Assembly: GCA_051747805.1 (NCBI GenBank)
Contig: JBNJGP010000004.1
Location: 1 to 61,376, forward strand
Length of the DNA: 61,376 nucleotides
Reading direction: 5' to 3'
DNA from: Candidatus Muiribacteriota bacterium
Lineage (GTDB): Bacteria > Muiribacteriota > Muiribacteriia > Muiribacteriales > Muiribacteriaceae
The notes beneath the pieces were generated by a model. It ran no database searches. It was not told where the DNA came from and saw nothing but the letters and a program-made list of their open reading frames with translations. Shown in pieces: positions 5,233-25,121 of the stretch. The position numbers were made by a program, and so were the translations under genes. The stretch's first letter is position 1. Every line of letters starts with the position of its first letter.

Positions 5233-5979
5233 ATGACAGATTTTAAATACATTAGAAAAGAACATAGAAAAAATGATAAAAAAAGAAAGGTTAAATTTAC
5301 AAGAAACTTTACAAAGCACGCAGAGGGTTCTGTGCTGGTAGAGTTTGGACAAACTAAGGTAATATGTAACGTTAGTGTCGATGACGGAGTGCCTCCTTTT
5401 TTAAAAGGAAAAAACCAGGGGTGGATTACTGCTGAATACGCAATGCTGCCAAGGGCAACGAACTTCAGAACCCGTAGAGAAACTACGAGAGGAAAACCTT
5501 CAGGTCGAACAATGGAAATTCAGAGGTTAATCGGCAGAGCCTTAAGGGCCGTAGTTGATTTAAAAAAAATCGGGGAAAATACATTATGGGTTGACTGTGA
5601 TGTAATTCAGGCAGACGGAGGAACTCGGACTGCTGCAATTTCCGGGGCGATGGTTGCTTTATATGATGCCCTCAACTATATGAAAAACAAAGGTAAAATA
5701 GATAAAGATCCTGTTAAGCAGTTTATTGCAGCAGTAAGTGTTGGTATTATAAAAAACAATGTTATTTTAGATTTGGATTATAATGAGGATTCACAGGCAG
5801 ATGTTGATATGAATGTTATTATGACAGAAAAAGGAGAGTATGTTGAACTGCAGGGAACAGGGGAAGAAAATACTTTTTCGCATAATCAGCTTCTGGAAAT
5901 GCTTTCAAAGGCAGAACTTGGAATTATGGAGATAATAGAAAGTCAGAAAGAAGTTTTAGGGCTTGATATTTCTAAATGA
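5233..5979 (+). CDS. rph: Ribonuclease PH
   Basis: [31 protein letters not shown]. Confidence 0.98.
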
Positions 5980-6563
5980 AAAAAATAATAATTGCCTCTT
6001 CAAATAAGAATAAAATTAAAGAAATAGTTAATATAGCTTCCTGTTTGAACTTAAATTTTAAATTTTTGAATTTAAATAATATTGAAAAGTTGTATGTTGA
6101 AGAAACAGGAAACTCATTCGAGGAAAATGCTATAATAAAAGCAAAAGCCTACTGGCAGAAATATAAAATTCCAGTGATTTCAGATGACTCCGGTTTATGT
6201 GTGGATAAATTAAATGGGTTTCCAGGCTTATATTCGTCAAGATATTCAGGGGGCGGAGACTCTTTAAATATCAAAAAACTTCTGCTGGAACTTCAGGGAG
6301 TTCCGGAAGACGCCAGAAAAGCCTCCTTTTTTTGTTCTGTCTGTTTTTGTAACGGTGATTTTCACGTTTTTAATGGTTTTGTAAAGGGTACTATTTCCCA
6401 GATCCCGTCTGGGAAAAATGGTTTTGGATATGACCCTGTTTTTTTATTTAATAAGTATAAAAAAACGTTTGCTGAGCTTTCTCTGCAGACAAAAAATAAA
6501 ATTAGTCACAGAGCTTCTGCTATTGAAAAATGTTTAAAGTTCATAAAAGAAAAAATTGTCTAA
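5976..6563 (+). CDS. rdgB: Non-canonical purine NTP pyrophosphatase (Ham1/RdgB)
   Basis: [27 protein letters not shown]; follows rph. Confidence 0.95.
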
Positions 6564-6692
6564 AATTAAAGCATTTTCTGATTAAAAAATAATCATTTCC
6601 CGTTTTCAAATTTTTTTTACCAAAGTTTTAATTATGGTTTCAAATTCTTATAGATAATGGGTTTTAAATTTAAAACATGAATTTTCAATTTT

Positions 6693-6709
6693 TTGGCACA
6701 TTATTTGCA
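6693..6709 (+). promoter_or_regulatory. Sigma54 (-24/-12) promoter
   Basis: TTGGCAC-ATTAT-TTGCA matches the TGGCAC-N5-TTGCW consensus. Confidence 0.75.
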
Positions 6710-6719
6710 TATATAGTAA

Positions 6720-6815
6720 TCGATTATTTGTATACCCTCTTGGGTAAACAAAAAGTCTCCCAGAACATATTATACTCCCTTTTGTCCCTCGGGTTTTCCC
6801 GGGGGATTTTATTTT
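6720..6815 (+). ncRNA. Candidate sigma54-dependent small RNA (about 95 nt)
   Basis: Predicted start 12 nt after the -12 element; hairpin 6727-6752; two CTCCC motifs; GC hairpin plus T tract terminator; no credible ORF. Confidence 0.6.
6785..6815 (+). terminator. Intrinsic terminator of the candidate sRNA
   Basis: TCCCTCGGG-TTTT-CCCGGGGGA followed by TTTTATTTT. Confidence 0.75.
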
Positions 6816-6981
6816 ATTTGACTAATAATCAATTCTTTTGTATTTTTAATATAAAGGACCTGGCCCTGGGTAAAATAAAAAAATTCCTCTGCCTGATTCC
6901 TGGTTCTAAGTGTTTTTTGAATCAAATTTGGATATGCAGTAAATTAAGATAGAAGAACATTAAATCATATTTGGAGGCAAA

Positions 6982-8310
6982 ATGCAGGTTAAAGAGATTG
7001 AAAGAAATAATGACGGTAATGTTTCCTATAAAGTTACTTTGCCAAGCGAAAAGGTTGATAATGCGATTGAAAGAGTATACAAAGACCTTGTTAAAAGAGT
7101 TAATATACCGGGATTCCGTAAAGGCAAAGTGCCTAAAAAAGTGCTGGAAGTACGTGTAGGCAAAGAATATTTTGAGGAAGAAGCTAAAAAAATGCTGCTT
7201 GAAGAAAGTTTTTATGATGCTTTTAAAAATATAGATGACAAAGTATTAAAGCAGGATTTAGATGATCTGGAGCTTGAGGTTGGAAAAGGTTTTTCTTATG
7301 TTATTAAACTTGAAACTGTTCCAGATGTAGATATTTCTGAAGAGACCTATAAAAATCTTAATATTGAATTAGAAAAAGAAGAATATACTGAAGAAAAATA
7401 CAAAAAAAATCTTGAAGAGTTTTTAGAAAAACATGGTACAAAAGAAGAAGTTAAGGACCGTGGGCTTAAAGAAGGTGATAATGCTGTTATAAACTTTTTA
7501 GGTAAAATTGATGGTGAGCCATTTGAAGGCGGTAAGGCTGATAATTATAATTTGAAAATTGGCTCTGGTTCTTTTATTGATAATTTTGAAGAACAGCTTG
7601 AAGGAATGAAACCCGAAGACAAAAAAACTGTTAAAGTTACTTTCCCGAAAAGTTATCAACAGGAAAAACTTGCCGGGAAAGAGGCTGAGTTTGATGTAGA
7701 ACTTTTAAAAATTGAGGCTGTAAAACTACCTGAAATCGACGAAGAACTTCTTAAAAAAATAAATTATAAAACTGAAGAAGAGCTTAAAGAAGATTTTGTT
7801 AACAAAACAAAAGAACAGGTAGAAAAAAACAATAAAATTCAACTTGAAAATAAAATAATTGATAAAATTATTTCTAATCTGGATTTAACTCCTCCAGACT
7901 CCATGATTAATTATATTGTGGATACAAAGATTAATGAATTTGAGCAGAATATGAAAAAATACTTTCCAAACTTAACTCTTGATGATTACTTGAAGGCTAC
8001 TAACTCAGACAGGGGGGCCCTGAAAAAAAATTATGAGGAATCTGCCGGAAAACAGGCTTTAATCGAACTTGTAATGAAAAATATTGCAAGAATTGAGGGC
8101 ATACAAGTTGAAAATGATGATATAGATGTTAAACTTAAAGAAGTAGCCCAGAACATGAAACAGGATGCTCAGAAAATAAAAGAGTCATTAAAAGCTTCTG
8201 GAAACCTGTCTCTTGTTAAAGAAGAAATTTTAATGGAAAAAACAATTGATTTTATAAAAAATGCTGCCGATATAAAAGAAAAAAATGAAGGTGAAAAACA
8301 GGAGGGTTAA
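6982..8310 (+). CDS. tig: Trigger factor
   Basis: [10 protein letters not shown] ribosome-binding motif, FKBP domain (FEGG...[11 protein letters not shown]); precedes clpPX. Confidence 0.97.
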
Positions 8311-15708: not shown

Positions 15709-16070
15709 GTAGTTTTGAAAAAAGAAGAGAGCATTTAAAAAATCTTTCTGAAAAAGAACTAAGAGAACGATTCTGGGAGTTATCAAATAAAATTATGGAG
15801 CCTATTGTTCAGTTTGCCCATAATCATACTTCTCCTTCAATAGAGCGTTCTGTTCTTTTGAGAATGGGATTTACATCTTTAAGGGCAGATGGTATTGTGC
15901 AGAAAGTTAAAGAGGCTGGACTGCTTTCAAAAGGGGCTGGCGGAGTTGTTTTAAGAGTTTCTCAGGCTTTAAATATAAGCGTTGAAGAGGCTGGTGAAAA
16001 AATCGCCGAAGAAACGGATTTTAATTTTAAAGAAATAATAGGCGGAGGTAAAAATGTTAAAACAGGATGA
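15705..16070 (+). CDS. oraS: D-ornithine 4,5-aminomutase S subunit
   Basis: FEKRREHL, RFWEL, HTSPSIERSVLLRMGF, LLSKGAG. Confidence 0.93.
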   Translation: MSSFEKRREHLKNLSEKELRERFWELSNKIMEPIVQFAHNHTSPSIERSVLLRMGFTSLRADGIVQKVKEAGLLSKGAGGVVLRVSQALNISVEEAGEKIAEETDFNFKEIIGGGKNVKTG

Positions 16071-18222
16071 AAAGCTCAAAATAGATGAGATATTAAAAGA
16101 TTTAAAAAATTATAAACCAAGAAGAAAGGGATGGACATGGCGTAATAGTGAAAAAAATTTAAAAATGCATAAGTTCAACTTTAAAAATTGTTCAACCCCC
16201 TTAAAAAATTCTGTTCCTCTTCCAGCTGCTAAATACTTTGGAGACATTGACCCTCAGCCTGATTGTATTATTACTTCTGAAATTGCATCAGGAAGGTTTG
16301 AAGATGATATACGTCGTATGAGGATGGCTGCCTGGCATGGTGCTGACCATATTATGGTAATAAGAACAACAGGACAGAGTCATATTGATGGTCTTATTGA
16401 AGGAACTCCCGAAGGTATTGGAGGGGTTCCTATCACAAGAAAACAGCTTAGGGCAAGTCGTAAAGCTCTTGATTTAATTGAGGATGAAGTGGGCAGACCA
16501 ATTAATTTCCATTCTTATGTTTCCGGGGTTGCTGGACCTGAAATGGCAGTTATGTTTGCCGAAGAAGGGGTTAACGGGGCTCATCAGGATCCGCAGTACA
16601 ATGTTTTATATAGAAATATTAATATGAAAAGATCTTTTGTTGATGCTGCGGTTGCTAAAAATATTATTGGGGGAGCAGGTATTTTTCAGATAGATGGAGC
16701 GCATAATGCGAATGCAACTGCCCGAGAAGCCTGGAAAGTTATGCCTGAGCTGATGGTTCAACATGCTCTTAACTGTGCCTATTCAGTAAAATGTGGTATT
16801 CCCAGAGAAAATATTGGATTATCAACTGTGCCTCCAAATTCTCCGCCTGCGCCCAAAGTATGGTTTGATTTACCATATGCAGTTGCTTTACGTGAATTTT
16901 TTCAGGGTTTTAAATTCAGGGCCCAACAGAATACAAGATATATTGAGTCAGATACTGATGAGGCAACTGTTACTCATGTAATTGATACTTTAATATCTAA
17001 AATGACTTCTTCAGATATTCAAAGTACTATAACTCCCGACGAGGGAAGAAACGTTCCCTGGCATTATAATAGCATAAAGGGTGTAAATACCGCAAAACAG
17101 ACTTTTGTTTCCCTGGATGGTTTTATGGAAATGGTGGAGCTTAAAAATGAGGGTCCTTTAAGAGATAAAGTAAGGGAGCTGAAAGAAAGGGCTGTTTTAT
17201 TTATGGAAGAGATTGCAGAATATGGCTATTTTGAGGCCGTAAAAAAAGGCATGTTTGTAGATTCTGCTGAATATCCTGAAAGAAATGGTGATGGAATAGC
17301 AAGAGACCCGGAAAAAGGGGTTGCTGTTAACTCTATTGTTGAAAGAGACAAGGATTATCTTGCGCCCGTTTGTAGTCATTTTGGCTATAATATGGCAGAT
17401 AATACACCCTGTTCTTCTATTGGAGGATGCACGCTCTGCGATTCTTCAAAAATCAAATATATTGATGAGCTTGATGAAACTGACTGTGCGGATAAAAGGT
17501 TAAAATCAAAAGTTGAGGATGATGAAAAAGGGCTTATTTCTCCGGAAGTAGAATGGCACGGAGACGGAACTGTTTTGCTTACTCTTTTTTATCCTGAATG
17601 TCAGGAAATTGCAGAAGCAGCTGCTTTGCAGCTTGCAAAAAACATGAATATTTTAGAGCCTCAAGTTTGTCACAGGCAGGTAATGCATCCGGCTGAAGGA
17701 ACTTATATTGAGCTTAGAGGCAAAGTTGATTTAAAAATTGATAAATCAACTCTTTATATTCCACCAAAGAAAAAAGTTCTTTCTGAGGAACAGATTAGAA
17801 AGGCTGTTGATACATATAAAATAAAAGTTGTTGCCGCAACTGTTGGCGAAGATGAACACTCTGTGGGACTGAGGGAAATACTTGATATTAAACATGGAGG
17901 TGTTGAAAAATTTGGCATTAAATACAGATATCTGGGAACTTCGGTTCCTGTTGAAAAGCTTGTTGATGCTGCTGTTGAGTTTGGAGCTGATGCAATTTTA
18001 ATGTCAACAATTATTTCTCATAATGAAATACATATTAAAAATCAGAAAAAGCTTCATCAGACAGCAGTTGAAAAAGGTATAAGAGATAAGGTGCTTCTTG
18101 TTGCGGGAGGAACTCAGGTTAATAATGAGCAGTCTGTTTCGGCTGGAATGGATGCTGGTTTTGGACGTGGTTCTAAGGGAATTGAAGTTTCAAGTTTTAT
18201 TGTTGAAAACTTAAAAAGATAA
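16054..18222 (+). CDS. oraE: D-ornithine 4,5-aminomutase E subunit (AdoCbl/PLP)
   Basis: EIASGRFEDDIRRMRMAAWHGADH, cobalamin DxHxxG (EDEHSVG), PLP lysine in IKHGG. Confidence 0.96.
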   Translation: MLKQDEKLKIDEILKDLKNYKPRRKGWTWRNSEKNLKMHKFNFKNCSTPLKNSVPLPAAKYFGDIDPQPDCIITSEIASGRFEDDIRRMRMAAWHGADHIMVIRTTGQSHIDGLIEGTPEGIGGVPITRKQLRASRKALDLIEDEVGRPINFHSYVSGVAGPEMAVMFAEEGVNGAHQDPQYNVLYRNINMKRSFVDAAVAKNIIGGAGIFQIDGAHNANATAREAWKVMPELMVQHALNCAYSVKCGIPRENIGLSTVPPNSPPAPKVWFDLPYAVALREFFQGFKFRAQQNTRYIESDTDEATVTHVIDTLISKMTSSDIQSTITPDEGRNVPWHYNSIKGVNTAKQTFVSLDGFMEMVELKNEGPLRDKVRELKERAVLFMEEIAEYGYFEAVKKGMFVDSAEYPERNGDGIARDPEKGVAVNSIVERDKDYLAPVCSHFGYNMADNTPCSSIGGCTLCDSSKIKYIDELDETDCADKRLKSKVEDDEKGLISPEVEWHGDGTVLLTLFYPECQEIAEAAALQLAKNMNILEPQVCHRQVMHPAEGTYIELRGKVDLKIDKSTLYIPPKKKVLSEEQIRKAVDTYKIKVVAATVGEDEHSVGLREILDIKHGGVEKFGIKYRYLGTSVPVEKLVDAAVEFGADAILMSTIISHNEIHIKNQKKLHQTAVEKGIRDKVLLVAGGTQVNNEQSVSAGMDAGFGRGSKGIEVSSFIVENLKR

Positions 18223-18228
18223 AAAAAT

Positions 18229-18280
18229 GGGTCAGAGTTGAGTTGTATATTATGTTTATCAATTTAACCTGACCCTTTAT
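18229..18280 (+). terminator. Hairpin after oraE (REP-like family B)
   Basis: GGGTCAG-A-GTTGAGTTG...CAATTTAAC-CTGACCC then TTTAT. Confidence 0.65.
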
Positions 18281-18385
18281 TTCGTAATAAATTTTAACCT
18301 CTTGCTCTTATCGTCTCACCTCTTACTTCTCACCCCTCACTTCTCACCTCTCACGGCTCTTATCGGCTCCTATCGGCCTGACCAC
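18277..18385. repeat. Heptamer/decamer repeat element, copy 2 (6 heptamers)
   Basis: Same leader as 12716; GTCTCAC CTCTTAC TTCTCAC CCCTCAC TTCTCAC CTCTCAC; decamers GGCTCTTATC GGCTCCTATC. Confidence 0.85.
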
Positions 18386-18429
18386 TCGTTTTTCTTGTTG
18401 AAAATAAAAATTAATGATATAATCAAAAT

Positions 18430-19998
18430 ATGGTTATGGGGAACGTTTTTGGAAAAATAATTGATAAGATTGAATCTGCAGATAAAATTATTGCAATTTT
18501 ACAGCAGAGAAGTAAAATTAAAGATAATGCTGGTGCTGAGACTGAATTTACTATAGCCAGAAATTACTTTGATTCTGGCGACTACGGAAATGCATTTACT
18601 CATTTAAAAAAATCGGTGCTTTTAAATTATTCTTACTCTGTTTCCTATTTATATATTTCTAAAATATATCAGGAAAAAAATCTATTTCAGGATGCAAGAA
18701 AACTTCTGGAAGCCTGCATAAAATATAATCCCTCCTATATTATATATTCTGAACTTGCCTCTGTTTATTTAAGGTCGGGAATGAAAATGAAAATTTCAGA
18801 TTTATGGAAAAAATATATTGACAAATTTCCTGATAATGAGAAGGGTTATTTAAATCTGGGAAATTTTTATGCTTCAATGGGGCAGAATGGTAAGGCAATT
18901 TCTATTTTTGAAAAAGTTCTTAAAATTAAAAAAGATAATACTTCTGTTAAAGAAGAAATAGCTGATATTTACTTAAATGGTGGTAAAAATAAAGAGGCCG
19001 GAGATATTTTAAGAGAAATTTTTGATTCTACCGAAGTTTCGGGGATGCGGGCTGAATATGGTAGAAAACTCTTAGATATTTATTTAGCAGAAAATGAGTT
19101 AAAAAAAGCTCTTGAAATTGCCTCTGAACTTCAGACTTTTGTTAAGGAGGAAAAAGTTTTTATTAAAATTTCTGATGTTTATTTAGCATGTGGGATTTTT
19201 GAAGAAGCACTTAACTTTTTAAACCGTATCAGAAAGGTAAACCCTCTTAATTATGCCGTTTATTTCAGATATGCCTTTATTTATTCACTGAAAGAAAATA
19301 AAGAAGAAGTTTATAATAATCTGAAATTCATAATAAAATTTAATGAAAATTCAAAAGTTATTAGATTATTAAATGATTTTGACCAAATAACTTCAGATGA
19401 ACTTAAAGAAAAAACAGGCGAAATAATTGTAACTAATTCTGAAATTAAAAATGAAACTGTTAGAAACTTAATTGAAAATAAAGATATGCTTCCAGAACCA
19501 CAAGAGGAAGATAAAATTGAAATAAAAGAAAACATTGAAAATAATCAGGAAGATGAATTTACCCTGAGAACAGCTGTTAAAACTCTGGAAGAAATAAATA
19601 ATTTTTTTGAAAAACAAATGGAAAATCAGTCCAGGCTTATTGGAATTATTTCCAGGTTGATTGAAAAAAATAATTATAATAATATGGAAGAAGTGTCAAA
19701 AATCTTTTTTTTTAATAATGAACAGATAAAATATGTTCTTTCACGTGAAACACAATCCAAAGAGGAGTTTCACGAAATATTCAATAAAATAAAAAGCGGA
19801 ATTAAAAAGAGCGTATATAAAACAAGTAAAGGGAATAAGAGGATTTATAACAAAATAAATGAGTTCCGGAAAAAAAATCTGGAAACTCAGGGAATTTTAG
19901 AGAAGTATCTTTATCAGATTGAAAAAATAAACAGAAAAATTGAGTTAGACGAAGATATTGAAAGTATAATTGACAGTCTGAAGAAACTTCAGGTTTAA
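18430..19998 (+). CDS. Tetratricopeptide repeat protein with coiled-coil C-terminus
   Basis: Repeated TPR patterns (YLNLGNFYASMGQNGKAISIFEKVL); extended -10 TGaTATAAT at 18415. Confidence 0.75.
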   Translation: MVMGNVFGKIIDKIESADKIIAILQQRSKIKDNAGAETEFTIARNYFDSGDYGNAFTHLKKSVLLNYSYSVSYLYISKIYQEKNLFQDARKLLEACIKYNPSYIIYSELASVYLRSGMKMKISDLWKKYIDKFPDNEKGYLNLGNFYASMGQNGKAISIFEKVLKIKKDNTSVKEEIADIYLNGGKNKEAGDILREIFDSTEVSGMRAEYGRKLLDIYLAENELKKALEIASELQTFVKEEKVFIKISDVYLACGIFEEALNFLNRIRKVNPLNYAVYFRYAFIYSLKENKEEVYNNLKFIIKFNENSKVIRLLNDFDQITSDELKEKTGEIIVTNSEIKNETVRNLIENKDMLPEPQEEDKIEIKENIENNQEDEFTLRTAVKTLEEINNFFEKQMENQSRLIGIISRLIEKNNYNNMEEVSKIFFFNNEQIKYVLSRETQSKEEFHEIFNKIKSGIKKSVYKTSKGNKRIYNKINEFRKKNLETQGILEKYLYQIEKINRKIELDEDIESIIDSLKKLQV

Positions 19999-20022
19999 CC
20001 TTTATGTTTTCTGGAGGATTTC

Positions 20023-20367
20023 TTGAACAATAAAGGAAAACTATGGGAAAAAGTTGCCGTAAATTATCTATTAAAAGCAGATTTCAAAGTTATTATTCAA
20101 AATTTCAACTGCCGGATGGGTGAAATTGATATAATAGCTCTCAAGGGGCAATATCTTCATTTTATCGAGGTTAAATATCGAAAAAGTTATAGTTTGACTA
20201 GTTCTGCCGAGTCTGTAAATAAAAACAAAATTAAAAAAATAAAAAAGGCTGCCGGATTTTTTTTACTCATAAATAAAAAATATTCTAATTTTTATATGCA
20301 GTTTGATGTTTTATGTATTAATGGAAGTGCTGATAATATAGATTTTATAGAAAACTGTTTTTATTAA
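20023..20367 (+). CDS. yraN: YraN family (UPF0102) putative endonuclease
   Basis: G..WE..A..YL, GEIDIIA, FIEVKYR, FDV; TTG start with GGAGG. Confidence 0.9.
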   Translation: MNNKGKLWEKVAVNYLLKADFKVIIQNFNCRMGEIDIIALKGQYLHFIEVKYRKSYSLTSSAESVNKNKIKKIKKAAGFFLLINKKYSNFYMQFDVLCINGSADNIDFIENCFY

Positions 20368-20383
20368 ACTGTTGTACAGGCTT

Positions 20384-20510
20384 CAGCAATTCTCAATGAA
20401 AATAGAGAAAATCCTTGATTTGATGGGGTCAGCGCCGACATCACTTTGCGAAAAAGCAAAGTGTGTAGGCCTGACCACTAAAGGATTTTCGGCTAAATTG
20501 AGAATTGTTG
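20384..20510. mobile_element. MITE copy 1 (127 bp) with 9-bp target-site duplication
   Basis: TIRs CAGCAATTCTCAAT / ATTGAGAATTGTTG; TACAGGCTT duplicated at 20375-20383 and 20511-20519; internal long hairpin 20425-20478. Confidence 0.85.
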
Positions 20511-20527
20511 TACAGGCTTTTGCTATC

Positions 20528-20556
20528 TTGACAAAACGTTATCTATTTTTTACTAT
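20528..20556 (+). promoter_or_regulatory. Putative sigma70 promoter of glnA
   Basis: TTGACA-N17-TACTAT. Confidence 0.6.
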
Positions 20557-20606
20557 AAACCAAATAATGACCCCTTGTTAAAACATATTCAAAAAGGAGT
20601 ATAATA

Positions 20607-22016
20607 ATGTTAAAGAAAATTAAAAGTATAATTGAAAAAGAAAATGTTGAACTTATTGATTTTAAAACATCAGATTTTCTAGGAAAGCTTAATCATCTTA
20701 CTATTCCTGCAAAAAACATGACTGAAGAAATGCTTGAGGAGGGAATAGGCTTTGATGCTTCAAATTATAAATTTGCCAAAGTTGAAAATTCAGATATGGT
20801 TATGAAACCTGATTTAAATAAGTATTTTATTGATGATTTTTTTTCTCATAAAGTAATGAGTTTTTTATGTGATAGTTTTCTTGCAGATTCTGGTGAAAAA
20901 AATAATCTTGATCCAAGAAATATTTGTAAAAATGTAATGCAGCTTTTTAAAGATAAGGGAATTGCTGATGAAATTCTTTTTGGACCTGAATATGAGTTTC
21001 ATATTTTTGACAATGTTAAATTTGAATATACTTCAGAAAAAGCCTTTTTTGATGTTCTTTCTAAACAATCAACTAAAAATACTGGAAAAGTAGATTCAAA
21101 CAGAGGGTATCATTTAAACTCACATAGTGGATATCATGCTCTACAGCCTAATGATACTTTTGCTGATTTAAGAAATGAAATGACATTAAAGCTCAATAAA
21201 TTTGGTATTCCAATCAAATATAATCATCATGAGGTTGGCGGAGCCGGACAGATGGAAATTGAAACAGGTTTCATGGATCTTTTATCTGCCGCTGATAATA
21301 CTCAGATTATTAAATATGTTATAAAAAATGTTGCTGTTAAAAATGGGAAAACTGCTACATTTATGCCCAAACCTATTGAAAATGAGGCTGGTAATGGTTT
21401 TCATTCTCATATGTTCTTAAAAAAAGATGGAAAAAATATATTTACCGATGGAAATAAACAGCTTTCTGAAACCGCGTACTGTGCAATAGGAGGTATTTTA
21501 AAAAACATTAAATCACTAGTTGCCTTAACAAACCCTTCGACAAATTCCTACAAAAGACTGGTACCCGGTTTTGAGGCACCTGTCAAAATCTTTTTTGGTA
21601 AAGCTAACAGAAGTGCTGCGGTAAGGGTTCCAGCTTATGTAAAGTCTAATGAATATTTACGCTTTGAGTACAGACCTATGGATGCAATGTGTAATCCTTA
21701 TCTGGCTTTTTCTGCAATAGCTCTTGCGATGCTTGATGGTATCGAAAACAAACATGATGCCAGAAAACTTGGTTATGGTCCTGTTGACGTTAATATATTT
21801 GCTCTTGACGAAAAAGAGCTTGAGTCAATTGATTCTCTTCCACTGAATTTTGCAGAAGCTTTAAGTTACTTTGTTGAGGACAATGATTTTTTAACAAGAG
21901 ATGGAATTTTTTCAAAAGTTTTAATAGATAAATTTCTTGAGCTTAAGTACAAAGAAATACTTGAAGTAAGTAAAAAAATAACTCCTTATGAGTATGTAGC
22001 CTACTTTGATTTTTAA
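20607..22016 (+). CDS. glnA: Glutamine synthetase type I
   Basis: GFDAS, GPEYEF, HHEV, ATFMPKP, NSYKRLVPGFEAP, NRSAAVRVP, FEYRP. Confidence 0.96.
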   Translation: MLKKIKSIIEKENVELIDFKTSDFLGKLNHLTIPAKNMTEEMLEEGIGFDASNYKFAKVENSDMVMKPDLNKYFIDDFFSHKVMSFLCDSFLADSGEKNNLDPRNICKNVMQLFKDKGIADEILFGPEYEFHIFDNVKFEYTSEKAFFDVLSKQSTKNTGKVDSNRGYHLNSHSGYHALQPNDTFADLRNEMTLKLNKFGIPIKYNHHEVGGAGQMEIETGFMDLLSAADNTQIIKYVIKNVAVKNGKTATFMPKPIENEAGNGFHSHMFLKKDGKNIFTDGNKQLSETAYCAIGGILKNIKSLVALTNPSTNSYKRLVPGFEAPVKIFFGKANRSAAVRVPAYVKSNEYLRFEYRPMDAMCNPYLAFSAIALAMLDGIENKHDARKLGYGPVDVNIFALDEKELESIDSLPLNFAEALSYFVEDNDFLTRDGIFSKVLIDKFLELKYKEILEVSKKITPYEYVAYFDF

Positions 22017-22035
22017 TTTTTAAATCTATTTTACA

Positions 22036-22076
22036 GGGGTCTGAGCCGACATCAAGTTAGCTGAACTTGAATTTTT
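22036..22076 (+). repeat. Partial REP-like family B element and probable terminator after glnA
   Basis: GGGGTCTGAGCCGACATCA resembles 20425; hairpin TCAAGTT-AGCTG-AACTTGA plus T run. Confidence 0.55.
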
Positions 22077-22119
22077 AAAATAAATTAAAAAATGTTATAA
22101 TATAGAAGGAGAACTTAAA

Positions 22120-23061
22120 ATGAAAAAAACTGCTGTTGTTGCATTAGGTGGAAACAGTATAATAAAATCTTCTGAAAAAGGAACAATTGAAGAGCAGATA
22201 AAGAATTCAGTCGAAACCTGCAAATATTTAACAGAACTTGTTAAAAAGGGATATAATTTAATTATCACCCACGGTAATGGTCCGCAAGTTGGTAATATTT
22301 TACTTAGAAATGAGGCGGCCAAGCAGCTTCATAATATACCTGTTATGCCTCTTGATATTTGTGTTGCAGATTCTGAGGGAGGCATTGGTTATATGCTTCA
22401 ACGAACAATGTTTAATGAACTTCAAAAAGGAAAGATTGACAAAAAGGTTGCCACAATTATATCACAGATTATTGTATCAAAAGAAGATGATGCTTTTAAA
22501 AATCCAACAAAACCTGTTGGACCATTTTTTGATAAAGAACGTGCCCAAGAACTGCAGAGAGAAAAAGGGTGGGATATAGTTGAAGACAGCGGCCGGGGAT
22601 ATCGCAGAGTAGTTCCTTCCCCGAGGCCCGAGGGTTTTGTAGAGCTTGATATATTAAAATCTATGATAGAAAACAATTATATTGTTATTGCGGCCGGGGG
22701 CGGTGGTGTGCCGGTTTCAAAAAATACAGATGGCGAACTTGAACCGGTTGAGGCTGTTATTGATAAAGACTTCGCCTCTTCTTTTATTGCAAAAGAATTA
22801 AATGTTGACTTGTTTATGATTTTAACTGGTGTTCCAAAAGTTGCCCTTAATTTTCAGAAAGAAAACGAAAAATGGCTTGATAAAATAACTGTTTCTGAGG
22901 CTGAGAAACTGCTTAAGGAAAATCAGTTTCCACCGGGTAGTATGAAGCCTAAGATCGAGGCTGCCCTGGATTTTGTTAAAAGTACAGGTAAAGAGGTTAT
23001 TATAACCTGTTTTGAAGAGCTTGATAAAGAGGAATACGGTACAAAAATTATTTCTGATTAA
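22120..23061 (+). CDS. arcC: Carbamate kinase
   Basis: VALGGN, THGNGPQVG, NPTKPVGPF, GYRRVVPSP, VIDKD, GSMKPK. Confidence 0.96.
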   Translation: MKKTAVVALGGNSIIKSSEKGTIEEQIKNSVETCKYLTELVKKGYNLIITHGNGPQVGNILLRNEAAKQLHNIPVMPLDICVADSEGGIGYMLQRTMFNELQKGKIDKKVATIISQIIVSKEDDAFKNPTKPVGPFFDKERAQELQREKGWDIVEDSGRGYRRVVPSPRPEGFVELDILKSMIENNYIVIAAGGGGVPVSKNTDGELEPVEAVIDKDFASSFIAKELNVDLFMILTGVPKVALNFQKENEKWLDKITVSEAEKLLKENQFPPGSMKPKIEAALDFVKSTGKEVIITCFEELDKEEYGTKIISD

Positions 23062-23081
23062 AATAAAAGGATTTTTTTATT

Positions 23082-24560
23082 ATGTCAAATGAAAATCTTT
23101 TAGATGATTTGATTAAAATGGATAAAGCCTCTTCTTTTAATAATGAAGATAAAGAAGAACTTGCTATTTTAAAAAAATATAAAAAAAAACCTGAGAGTAA
23201 CCCTGTAGAAGAGGACGAATCATTAAAAAAAACTGATGATGAAGTTCCTGTTGAGTTACTCGAAGAACCTTCAGCTTTTTCTGAGGCAGAAGAAGAGGAA
23301 ATAGTCAATTATGATGATATTTTATCTGATTTTGCCTCAAAAGAGGTTTATCAGGAAGAAAACAATAATAAGGACGAAGAATTAGAAAAAAAACCTGACA
23401 AAAAAGAAAAAAACCACGAAAAAGAAGAAGTTGTCGAAATACCTGAAAACATTGAGTTTAATAAATTTTCTGATTTATATAATGAAAAGATGATTAAAAA
23501 AGCCGATAAAAGAATTGTTCTTGAGGTAAAAAAAGTTATAAACTCTTTTTTAGAGTTATTAATCACTAAAAATGGAAACGTTTTATATATTGATTCAGAC
23601 AGTTATCTGAGTCTTGTTTTGAATACAGGTCATGTTGAGACTGAAAAAAATAAATTATTTAACTTTAAGGCTCTTAATTCGTATATAGACTATATTATTC
23701 CTGGTGTTCAAAAGGAAGAATTTATTAAAAGAAATGTTTTCCGCACTCAGTACAGCTATATAAACGAAACATTCAATGTTTTAGTTTTCAGAGAAGATAA
23801 AAATGTTAAACTTTCATTTTCAAAAATAGAAAAAATTTCAAACGTAATTTTACCAGTAGTTAACTCTATTGATTATACAAGTGTTATTAATAGATATAAG
23901 GGAACTATTAATATAATTTCCGGGTTTAAGGAAGAATATTCTGTTGAAGTATCTAAACAGATTGCTGATAAACTTGCTGATGAGTTTAAAAATGTTTTTC
24001 TTATATATGAAAACAATAAATTCGATTTGAGTCAGAGGGGAATTATCTATTCTACTTTAAACAAAAATACAACTTCCGGGTCTGTAATAAAAGGAATAGT
24101 TCAATGTGTTGAACCACTTATTTTTTATGAGGCAGAGCTTAGTGAGCAGAACTTAAATAATATTATAGAAACTGCTTTTCTTGGCAAAAATGTGTTTTTT
24201 ATTATGAATAGCCGCAATTCTGCCAGTGAAATTGTAGAATTTTTTCTCAGTTCAATAAATAACCCTATGAAAAAAAGACTTTTCGCAAAATATCTTAATT
24301 CAATTTTATCTATAAATATATTATATGGACATAATTATGATAAAATACCAGTTTATGAGTATGTTTATTTTGATAAAAAGTTGAAAAGAAATTTGCTTGA
24401 GGCAAAATATGATAGTTTTTTCAGAGAGCTTCTTGAATTAAACAATGAAAATATTATCACTTTTGAAAAAAGCTTGAATAGAAGTGTTGCTTCTGATAAA
24501 ATATCAAGAAGCAATGCTCAAAAATTTTTAAATAATTTTGTTTCTGATAAAATAAACTGA
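23082..24560 (+). CDS. Degenerate PilT/PilU-like protein with acidic N-terminal extension
   Basis: C-terminal ~350 aa aligns by eye with PilT segments, but Walker A, Asp box and His box are substituted. Confidence 0.55.
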   Translation: MSNENLLDDLIKMDKASSFNNEDKEELAILKKYKKKPESNPVEEDESLKKTDDEVPVELLEEPSAFSEAEEEEIVNYDDILSDFASKEVYQEENNNKDEELEKKPDKKEKNHEKEEVVEIPENIEFNKFSDLYNEKMIKKADKRIVLEVKKVINSFLELLITKNGNVLYIDSDSYLSLVLNTGHVETEKNKLFNFKALNSYIDYIIPGVQKEEFIKRNVFRTQYSYINETFNVLVFREDKNVKLSFSKIEKISNVILPVVNSIDYTSVINRYKGTINIISGFKEEYSVEVSKQIADKLADEFKNVFLIYENNKFDLSQRGIIYSTLNKNTTSGSVIKGIVQCVEPLIFYEAELSEQNLNNIIETAFLGKNVFFIMNSRNSASEIVEFFLSSINNPMKKRLFAKYLNSILSINILYGHNYDKIPVYEYVYFDKKLKRNLLEAKYDSFFRELLELNNENIITFEKSLNRSVASDKISRSNAQKFLNNFVSDKIN

Positions 24561-24611
24561 AAAATTTTTGATAAAGTAAAAAAGTTAAAATTATAAAAAG
24601 GAGAGTATAAT

Positions 24612-25121
24612 ATGCTTGTTAAACAACTTGTTGTTGAAGCCAAAAACAGACCGGGAGAACTTCATAATATTGTAAAGCTTCTTTCTAGCAATAATGTTGA
24701 TATTAAGGCTATTGTTTCAAATGCCCAGACTTCTGACAATATTGTTATTGCTAAAGTTAGAATGATTGTTTTAAACGATGAAACAGCTATTGAAGTTCTT
24801 AAAAAAGAAGGGTATAAAGCCTATCTTGAAAATGTTGTTGTTGTTGATGTAAGCGATACACCGGGAAGTTTTGCTCCGGTTCTTGAGCTTTTTGATAAAA
24901 ATGATATTAATATTGAATATGTATATACTTTTTTAACTCATATTGAAAATAAAGCTTTAAGTGTTTTCTGCTTTGATAATAATGAAAAGGCTCTTGAGAT
25001 ATTAAAAGACAGTCAGTATACTGTTGTCACTGATAGTACAATTCAAAGTAGATATGGGGACTCAGAGTTTTACGAAGAAAGAGACCTTAGAGAATATTTA
25101 TCTACAATAATAACTCCTTAA
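24612..25121 (+). CDS. Tandem ACT-domain amino-acid-binding protein
   Basis: KQLVV..NRPGEL and DTPGSF...INIEYVY double ACT pattern. Confidence 0.8.
   Translation: MLVKQLVVEAKNRPGELHNIVKLLSSNNVDIKAIVSNAQTSDNIVIAKVRMIVLNDETAIEVLKKEGYKAYLENVVVVDVSDTPGSFAPVLELFDKNDINIEYVYTFLTHIENKALSVFCFDNNEKALEILKDSQYTVVTDSTIQSRYGDSEFYEERDLREYLSTIITP

Follow-up and report, generated by a model that had tools for sequence, protein, structure and literature searches.

Small RNAs (sRNAs) that depend on sigma-54 and seeds that are complementary to the Shine-Dalgarno (SD) sequence are both already established, and nothing in that picture is overturned by the locus described here. The Qrr RNAs of Vibrio depend on sigma-54 with LuxO and on Hfq, are about 100 nucleotides (nt) long, contain an invariant stretch of about 30 nt and an intrinsic terminator, and act in trans by base pairing. 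RsaE/RoxS of the Firmicutes is transcribed from a sigma-A promoter, ends in a terminator hairpin and uses two C-rich unpaired motifs (UCCC/CCCC) to pair with the SD sequences of central-metabolism messenger RNAs (mRNAs), and the LhrC family is regulated by LisRK. The subject of this text is a candidate sRNA gene of comparable build, located between rdgB and tig at positions 6,693 to 6,815 of a 61,376-nt stretch of DNA (referred to throughout as the window; contig JBNJGP010000004.1 of assembly GCA_051747805.1, forward strand) from an uncultured salt-lake bacterium of the candidate phylum Muiribacteriota. Three further systems bear on it. NfeR1/alpha-r14 of rhizobia (Alphaproteobacteria) is described as having ultraconserved unpaired anti-SD motifs and variable stems, acting by occlusion of ribosome-binding sites and having a link to nitrogen stress (NtrBC); its motif, CCUCCUCCC, is found in three hairpin loops, and the RNA is activated by LsrB and repressed by NtrC (PMC10746234). 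CJnc230 (FlmE) of Campylobacter jejuni is described as a 98-nt, RpoN-dependent RNA with a single-stranded anti-SD CCUU and with flagellar regulators as its targets (PMC11187230), and the sigma-54 regulome of Desulfovibrio vulgaris is described as including 4 non-coding RNAs (PMC4641369).

We propose that the locus encodes a sigma-54-dependent sRNA which, probably with Hfq, pairs across the SD sequence and AUG of chosen mRNAs and blocks initiation, a reading to which we assign a probability of about 0.68. That the element is an independently transcribed sRNA is very likely from the genomic evidence, and if it is one, action by pairing at start sites is likely in turn. In the scheme that we infer, from the transcription start and expression of the RNA to its Hfq dependence, its direction of regulation, its targets and its activating signal, sigma-54 polymerase would transcribe an RNA of about 95 nt when an enhancer-binding protein is active, and transcription would stop at the RNA's own intrinsic terminator, before a separate sigma-70-type promoter of tig. 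The RNA would be built of a variable 5' hairpin, an invariant and mostly unpaired core of 30 nt, UUUU, a terminator hairpin and a U tail. Its core, 5'-CAUAUUAUACUCCCUUUU-3', which complements, base for base, a start site that is near-ideal for this genome, would pair over the SD sequence and the start codon. This pairing would block 30S binding on chosen mRNAs (those for an aminotransferase and acetate kinase and, more weakly, glutamine synthetase), and a sigma-54 signal would thereby be linked to amino-acid and fermentation metabolism. A preliminary description of this DNA had called the element a self-contained regulatory RNA, a claim supported by the conservation of promoter, core and terminator, by the presence of rpoN, and by the lack of an Rfam family and of a conserved open reading frame (ORF).

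Conservation was assessed between the genome that holds the element (G000; 3.0 megabases, 31% G+C, 238 contigs) and three relatives of the same family (G001, G002 and G003; 87-96% complete), making four genera in total. When positions 6690-6815 were searched with BLAST against 41 genomes, strong matches were obtained in the three relatives (G002, 1e-18; G001, 3e-14; G003, 1e-10), and the 37 more distant genomes gave nothing better than 1e-4, their matches being short terminator- or promoter-like pieces. The homologue lies directly 5' of tig and in the same orientation in all three relatives, with promoter, core and terminator each kept in place. The 30-nt core (6753..6782, + strand; AAGTCTCCCAGAACATATTATACTCCCTTT), which is the predicted single-stranded seed, is 100% identical in all four genera within an intergenic alignment whose mean column identity is 57%, and the minimum-energy folds of G000 and G002 leave it unpaired. 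The four family sequences were combined into a covariance model, which was searched in 87 genomes of the phylum and found one copy per genome in the four family members (E 1e-14 to 1e-16); the only match in the other 83 genomes (G009, E 0.084) has neither core, promoter nor terminator and was rejected. Paralogous units of promoter, CUCCC motifs and terminator, which had been envisaged within these genomes, were not found, the element being present as a single copy in each. A scan of public genome contigs returned three records, apparently the three relatives themselves, and a metagenome scan returned two loci matching G002 and G003 (G003:C38), with no new variant.

The novelty claimed for the element also stood up against Rfam, as no family reaches its gathering threshold anywhere in the window. 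A sub-threshold scan of 6500-7000 at E <= 10 gave 14 matches, the best of which on the right strand is rli22 (RF01457, LhrC clan; 22.0 bits against a threshold of 80, E 0.31). Also below their gathering thresholds are His_leader (19.6 bits against 49), MicC (18 bits against 90) and RsaE (RF01820; 15.0 bits against 79), and Qrr is not among the 14. Judged by these comparisons, the element is a new RNA family of familiar design, so far confined to four genera of one family. No earlier description of a regulatory RNA in this candidate phylum was found, judging by the titles of the literature that names the phylum.

The element begins with a promoter of the sigma-54 type, with -24 and -12 elements TGGCAC-N5-TTGCA on the + strand (6694..6709; TGGCAC at 6694-6699 and TTGCA at 6705-6709). 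It had been reported as a consensus promoter, and it is indeed the sole match in the window, with 0 mismatches. The consensus is kept in G001 and G003, and the parts that are invariant across the four genera are TTGGCAC and the TTG-A of the -12 element. A composite pattern of promoter, 30-60 nt, CTCCC, 8-25 nt and CTCCC has 3 matches in the 87 phylum genomes, all at this locus, against 1 match for its reversed control; the composite of promoter and two CTCCC motifs exceeds chance. The presence of rpoN and of enhancer-binding proteins, on which the preliminary description depended, was confirmed by profile searches: G000 encodes rpoN on contig C63 (Sigma54_DBD, 147.5 bits, in a 476-aa open frame), and 8 of the 11 Sigma54_activat matches listed are strong (E <= 2e-24). 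A relaxed motif, TGG[CT]A[CT]-N5-TTGC[AT], has 22 sites in G000, several of them ahead of ORFs with ribosome-binding sites, and sigma-54 promoters of this form therefore appear to be in use.

Two sites outside the promoter itself may be related to its control. A stretch of 22 nt identical to the sRNA promoter (TTTTTGGCACATTATTTGCATA) is found at G000:C8:32396-32417, about 55 nt ahead of an ATG-initiated ORF, which may be co-regulated by the same activator. Closer by, a perfect palindrome, TGATTA-AAAAA-TAATCA (window 6579-6595), lies about 115 nt 5' of the -24 element. The sequence AAAATAATCAT reappears 5' of the G003 copy and, reversed, 5' of the G002 copy, so that the palindrome is partly shared with these two; it is not visible in G001, where the contig begins 86 nt upstream. 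It is a possible enhancer-binding site, on weak evidence and in an AT-rich region.

The transcript is predicted to span 6720..6817 on the + strand (about 95-98 nt), with the +1 position placed by promoter geometry. A 96-nt RNA covering 6720-6815 folds at -33.7 kcal/mol (z = -4.2), which was equalled by 0 of 200 dinucleotide shuffles. Its first feature is a 5' stem-loop (6722..6757, + strand) whose sequence is variable among relatives. The hairpin TTTGTaTACCC/GGGTAaACAAA proposed earlier lies inside this stem in the G000 fold, but the form in which it was drawn is absent in G001, and the minimum-energy folds of the relatives have 5' hairpins that differ from that of G000. An invariant UGGGUA (6741..6746, + strand) can pair either with the upstream ACCC of the 5' hairpin or with the CCCAG of the first CUCCC motif. 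The RNAalifold consensus prefers a 5-pair helix, CUGGG/CCCAG, which is without covariation because both of its sides are invariant. The two CTCCC motifs are present where they were first reported, at 6757..6761 and 6775..6779 on the + strand, and both are invariant. Motif 2 lies inside ACUCCCUUUU, the complement of the Shine-Dalgarno AAAAGGGAGU; motif 1 (GUCUCCCAG) may be a second seed or may be partly closed by the invariant CUGGG. The transcript is then predicted to end at an intrinsic terminator (6784..6817, + strand), also at its previously described place, with a stem (6784-6807) that we count as 10 base pairs, 7 of them G-C, a 4-nt loop and then TTTATTTTAT. All four homologues are predicted to have a G+C-rich hairpin and then a T tract at this position, their loops and stem bases being different. 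Immediately before the terminator stem stands UUUU (6780-6783), and the T tract follows the stem; UUUU, terminator hairpin and U tail together form what is predicted to be a typical Hfq-binding module. Two Hfq genes (92.2 and 49.9 bits) and one CsrA gene are encoded in G000.

The terminator is also central to the most probable of the alternatives, in which the element is a cis-acting leader of tig-clpP-clpX. Sigma-54 transcription would begin here, conditional read-through would add signal-dependent trigger factor and ClpXP, and the core would either bind a factor for antitermination or belong to an alternative structure. The placement agrees with such a role, since in all four genomes the element is immediately 5' of tig and points the same way, and on a reading of the sequence the UCUCCC of motif 1 could pair with GGGGGA in the 3' arm of the terminator. 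However, the terminator is a strong one (10 base pairs, 7 G-C, T tract) that forms in the minimum-energy folds of all four RNAs, and it is followed in all four genomes by a sigma-70-like promoter, so that tig does not need the sigma-54 promoter. In the window this downstream promoter, TTGACT-17-TATTTT (6818..6846, + strand), is identified by its match to the consensus and is probably tig's own; all three relatives have TTGAC(T/A/G) after the terminator and a TA-rich hexamer about 17 nt further on. Furthermore, neither the distance nor the sequence between terminator and tig is conserved, with about 80 extra nt in G000, the folds contain no competing antiterminator, and a leader would leave the start-site complementarity of the core unexplained. 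A cis-acting role is, on balance, quite unlikely.

This complementarity extends to a whole start site. The reverse complement of 6753-6784 is CAAAAGGGAGTATAATATGTTCTGGGAGACTT, and that of the core consists of a Shine-Dalgarno sequence, AAAAGGGAG, a 6-nt A/U spacer, UAUAAU, and AUG (GGGAG-TATAAT-ATG); the CAU that complements the start codon is at 6766..6768 on the + strand, 6 nt before motif 2. In a rough gene set for G000, with 2518 ORFs on 86% of the genome, GGAG most often stands 5-6 nt before the start codon (211 and 210 genes), and the spacer of the core equals this mode. Of the 18 bases in the start-site 18-mer, 14 are the commonest base of their start-site column in G000. On a matrix of G000 start sites the 18-mer scores 12.94 bits, a value that 1.28% of the 2507 called start sites and 55 of 91,722 ATG-ending 18-mers attain; put differently, the reverse complement of the core outscores 98.7% of G000 start sites. 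The 3' end of the 16S ribosomal RNA (rRNA) of G000 is the canonical GGAUCACCUCCUUUC, and the lineage therefore uses normal Shine-Dalgarno pairing. By its sequence, CAU-AUUAUA-CUCCC-UUUU is a ready-made complement of a strong start site.

Repeated short single-stranded motifs are also typical of protein sponges (CsrB/RsmZ), and the two CUCCC motifs with the U-rich tail could instead sequester an RNA-binding protein, both Hfq (in two genes) and CsrA being encoded. The loops contain no GGA, however, as CsrA requires, and we know of no CUCCC-binding protein. In addition, the 13 nt that separate the two motifs, CAU among them, vary no more than the motifs do, and extended base pairing therefore fits better than two protein sites. 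We consider a protein-titrating sponge very unlikely.

A core that mirrors a start site could also be one, serving on the minus strand as the ribosome-binding site and ATG (AAAAGGGAG-TATAAT-ATG-TTC-TGG-GAG-ACT) of a tiny or leader peptide, MFWET... The 18-mer is in the top 1.3% of real start sites, and an ATG-initiated ORF is present in 4 of 4 genomes. Nevertheless, these ORFs are 14, 34, 10 and 11 aa long and have nothing in common after residue 5; only MFWET, encoded by the core, is common to them, and the conserved TACCCAG falls in differing reading frames across the four genomes. No synonymous changes are seen in the five common codons or in the 15 nt upstream, while the proteins tested across the genera are 45-79% identical, a range also given as 64-79% for the orthologues compared, and the constraint is therefore on nucleotides and not on protein. 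The sigma-54 promoter is oriented for the + strand, as is the T-tract terminator, and a minus-strand ORF would run only into the promoter antisense and the end of rdgB. A peptide gene of this kind is extremely unlikely. On the + strand, a 91-aa ORF (6677-6952) does span the element, which goes against the earlier statement that there is no credible ORF; the statement stands insofar as this ORF is not conserved. In each of the three + strand frames, the length that stays open across the core varies between the genomes (in frame 0 it is 92, 49, 61 and 38 codons in the four genomes), and no conserved ORF was found on either strand among the four genomes. As for the absence of any RNA function, with promoter- and terminator-like sequences arising by chance or through a constraint on the DNA, such as a protein site regulating tig or rdgB, a promoter motif by itself is no improbable event (one turned up in 40 of 100 shuffles at up to one mismatch) and the metatranscriptome contigs show nothing over the element, but this explanation is hardly credible for a 30-nt invariant block in 57%-identical flanks across four genera, with a composite pattern unique to the locus in 87 genomes and a terminator kept through sequence change.

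The points that count against a sigma-54-dependent RNA pairing with start sites concern both the gene and its predicted targets. As for the gene, the promoter motif taken alone is within chance, since with up to one mismatch allowed 0.49 matches are expected per window, and one or more turned up in 40 of 100 shuffles. The -12 element of G002 is TTGTA and not TTGCA, and a search of the upstream regions in the four genomes for enhancer-binding sites found none that is clearly conserved, the shared words being AT-rich only. Compensatory double changes are seen in 0 of 11 consensus pairs among the four sequences, so that no helix is backed by covariation. Finally, the contigs of 3 metatranscriptome runs leave 6546-6955 bare, which is uninformative either way, given that these are contigs of low depth and that the RNA is a short one; together with 1 DNA run, the contigs hold parts of 6400-7400, covering tig at about 7000-7500 and a few short unrelated pieces.

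As for the targets, cofold energies over 2484 start regions of G000, the one genome scanned whole, were used as background. Shuffled and reversed seeds give energy tails similar to those of the real seed (minimum of -31.1 for the reversed vs -27.2 for the real), and 11-nt seed matches number 553 genome-wide vs 382-2949 for shuffles, without enrichment. A seed that mirrors the consensus start site will also, by default, favour any gene whose start site is strong. Energies and seed counts thus fail to separate the real seed from its controls, and recurrence across genomes was therefore used instead. A degenerate 14-mer for the complement of SD, spacer and AUG, allowing at most one mismatch, was searched in the four genomes and gave 12 sites in G000 and 13 in G001, compared with 6 and 3 for the reversed control; the lists in G002 and G003 are comparably short. 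Across all four genomes there are 11-16 sites each besides the sRNA locus. From the relatives 36 sites were taken, and the 30 with an ORF of at least 80 aa were scanned with Pfam, as were 22 top candidates from G000. A pyridoxal phosphate (PLP) aminotransferase of about 410 aa recurs in G000, G002 and G003, the G003 match being a perfect 20 nt. Acetate kinase (ackA), glutamine synthetase (glnA) and a phosphate butyryl/acetyl-transferase each recur in G000 and G001, and an M16 peptidase recurs in G000 and G002.

Cofold energies of orthologues in the four genomes were then expressed as percentiles of the G000 background. They are 0.12, 0.04, 2.9 and <0.04% for the aminotransferase, 1.7, 0.04, 2.5 and 2.8% for ackA, and 1.6, 0.16, 40 and 0.5% for glnA. 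Care must be taken with these values, as the orthologue sets were drawn from the top lists and a fair test therefore comes only from genomes that played no part in the picking, namely G001 in the case of the aminotransferase (2.9%), G002 and G003 in that of ackA (0.04 and 2.5%) and G002 and G003 in that of glnA (0.16 and 40%). Even here, orthologous start sites may be alike through common descent alone. The two top matches of G000 were not kept in the relatives, and both were dropped as targets: an ACT-domain gene (24612-25121; rank 1; 0.04, 41, 0.64 and 41%), which is at about 41% in G002 and G003, and flaG (rank 2; 0.08%), which is at 17-63% outside G000. The genes ptb (21, 0.2, 5.8 and 5.5%) and fliD (3.5, 0.00, 13 and 9.3%) were also dropped after the orthologue check. 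For rph, which had been put forward as a possible target on account of its GGGAGG ribosome-binding site, the predicted pairing is weak (dG -7.0, rank 940 of 2484) and the suggestion is not borne out; nor does the prediction point to tig (rank 2132 of 2484), rdgB or clpP. Only 4 genes of the window attain -12 kcal/mol, including glnA and the ACT-domain gene. The aminotransferase has no NCBIfam equivalog above cut-off. Among the candidate targets the aminotransferase and ackA are the best conserved and can be treated as reasonable leads, glnA being a weaker one; none of them is established. Given an independent sRNA, we consider it possible, if somewhat doubtful, that one of these first two is truly a target.

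The surroundings of these candidates can be described briefly. In G000 the aminotransferase (G000:C7:8736-9983, - strand) lies directly 3' of a PIN-PhoH2-type gene, the two being found within G000:C7:8736-11327; the start site of the PIN-PhoH2-type gene (GGGAGTAGAGTATG) is likewise a match to the seed, at one mismatch. The ackA gene is at G000:C34:16856-18067, - strand. The window contains a cluster of amino-acid metabolism genes (16054-25121), made up of a D-ornithine/lysine aminomutase-like gene (16054-18222), glnA (20607-22016), an amino-acid kinase (22120-23061), a 492-aa protein without a Pfam match (23082-24560) and an ACT-pair protein (24612-25121); the start sites of glnA and the ACT gene in this cluster are complementary to the sRNA seed in G000. 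The element itself is flanked upstream by rdgB of the Ham1 family (5976..6563, + strand; PF01725, E 1e-58) and downstream by tig, encoding trigger factor (6982..8310, + strand; Pfam Trigger_N, FKBP_C and Trigger_C). The ORF list of the window has two further ORFs 3' of tig, of the sizes of clpP and clpX, which we take to be these genes from their position and from general knowledge of the gene order. Between the tig promoter and the tig ribosome-binding site, about 80 nt (window about 6870-6950; alignment columns 416-480) are present in G000 only and have no counterpart in the three relatives.

A second candidate sigma-54 sRNA was found in G000 (G000:C27:8629-8769, - strand), where TGGCAT-N5-TTGCA stands ahead of a predicted RNA of about 88 nt. 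It has a 13-base-pair hairpin with the loop UCCCCACCCCCCCGCA and a T tract, and its fold (z -3.7) was equalled by 0 of 200 shuffles. The same candidate is present in G002 (C121; L115:1460-1600, - strand), with a promoter, the C-rich loop kept and the stem changed on both sides; BLAST gave no match in G001 or G003. In G002 the promoters of both sRNA loci are TGGCAC-N5-TTGTA (L011:1603-1622; L115:1563-1578), with GT in place of the canonical GC at -12, and this may be a lineage-specific tolerated variant. The lineage thus seems, from its genomes, to have at least two C-rich sRNAs driven by sigma-54. A bolder extension, which we consider unlikely, is that the first of these RNAs is a sigma-54-gated general brake on translation initiation, and not the regulator of a gene or two, for mRNAs with GGGAG-N6-AUG, including those for enzymes of central carbon and nitrogen metabolism such as aminotransferases, ackA, ptb and glnA. 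If true, the brake RNA, its core complementing the lineage's consensus SD, 6-nt spacer and AUG, would compete with the 16S rRNA tail and the initiator transfer RNA for a whole class of mRNAs, and together with the second sRNA (G000:C27) it may reprogram fermentative metabolism at the level of translation on a signal from an enhancer-binding protein.

Compared with known systems, the locus is an independent case of a recurring design, in which a sigma-54 promoter is combined with a C-rich anti-SD sRNA. As an sRNA gene it is cleanly delimited and conserved, its promoter class and its seed are defined, and its testable targets are few; it can be studied in a heterologous host although the organism is uncultured. 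Stand-alone non-coding RNA genes under sigma-54 promoters in anaerobes are a point of likeness to D. vulgaris, by description (PMC4641369). CJnc230 differs in having flagellar targets, whereas the complementarity to flaG and fliD seen in G000 is not kept in the relatives (PMC11187230). NfeR1 is alike in its invariant anti-SD motifs and variable stems; it is not transcribed from a sigma-54 promoter (PMC10746234), and no homology is apparent. The Listeria family LhrC/Rli22 (clan CL00114) gives the best sub-threshold likeness on the right strand, its consensus likewise having CUCCCUUUU, both in the loop of a hairpin and in the linker that leads to the terminator, and judged by sequence this likeness is one of convergent motif content. 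With RsaE/RoxS the element shares two C-rich motifs and a terminator hairpin, but it has a sigma-54 promoter, and one of its motifs is joined to an anti-AUG at fixed spacing. Like Qrr, it has its own sigma-54 promoter, a length of about 100 nt, an invariant core of about 30 nt and its own terminator; unlike Qrr, it is present as a single copy rather than up to five, has a C-rich seed complementary to a start site, belongs to a different phylum and gives no match in sequence or structure. What sets the element apart is a seed that is unusually explicit, mirroring the whole start site of SD, spacer and AUG.

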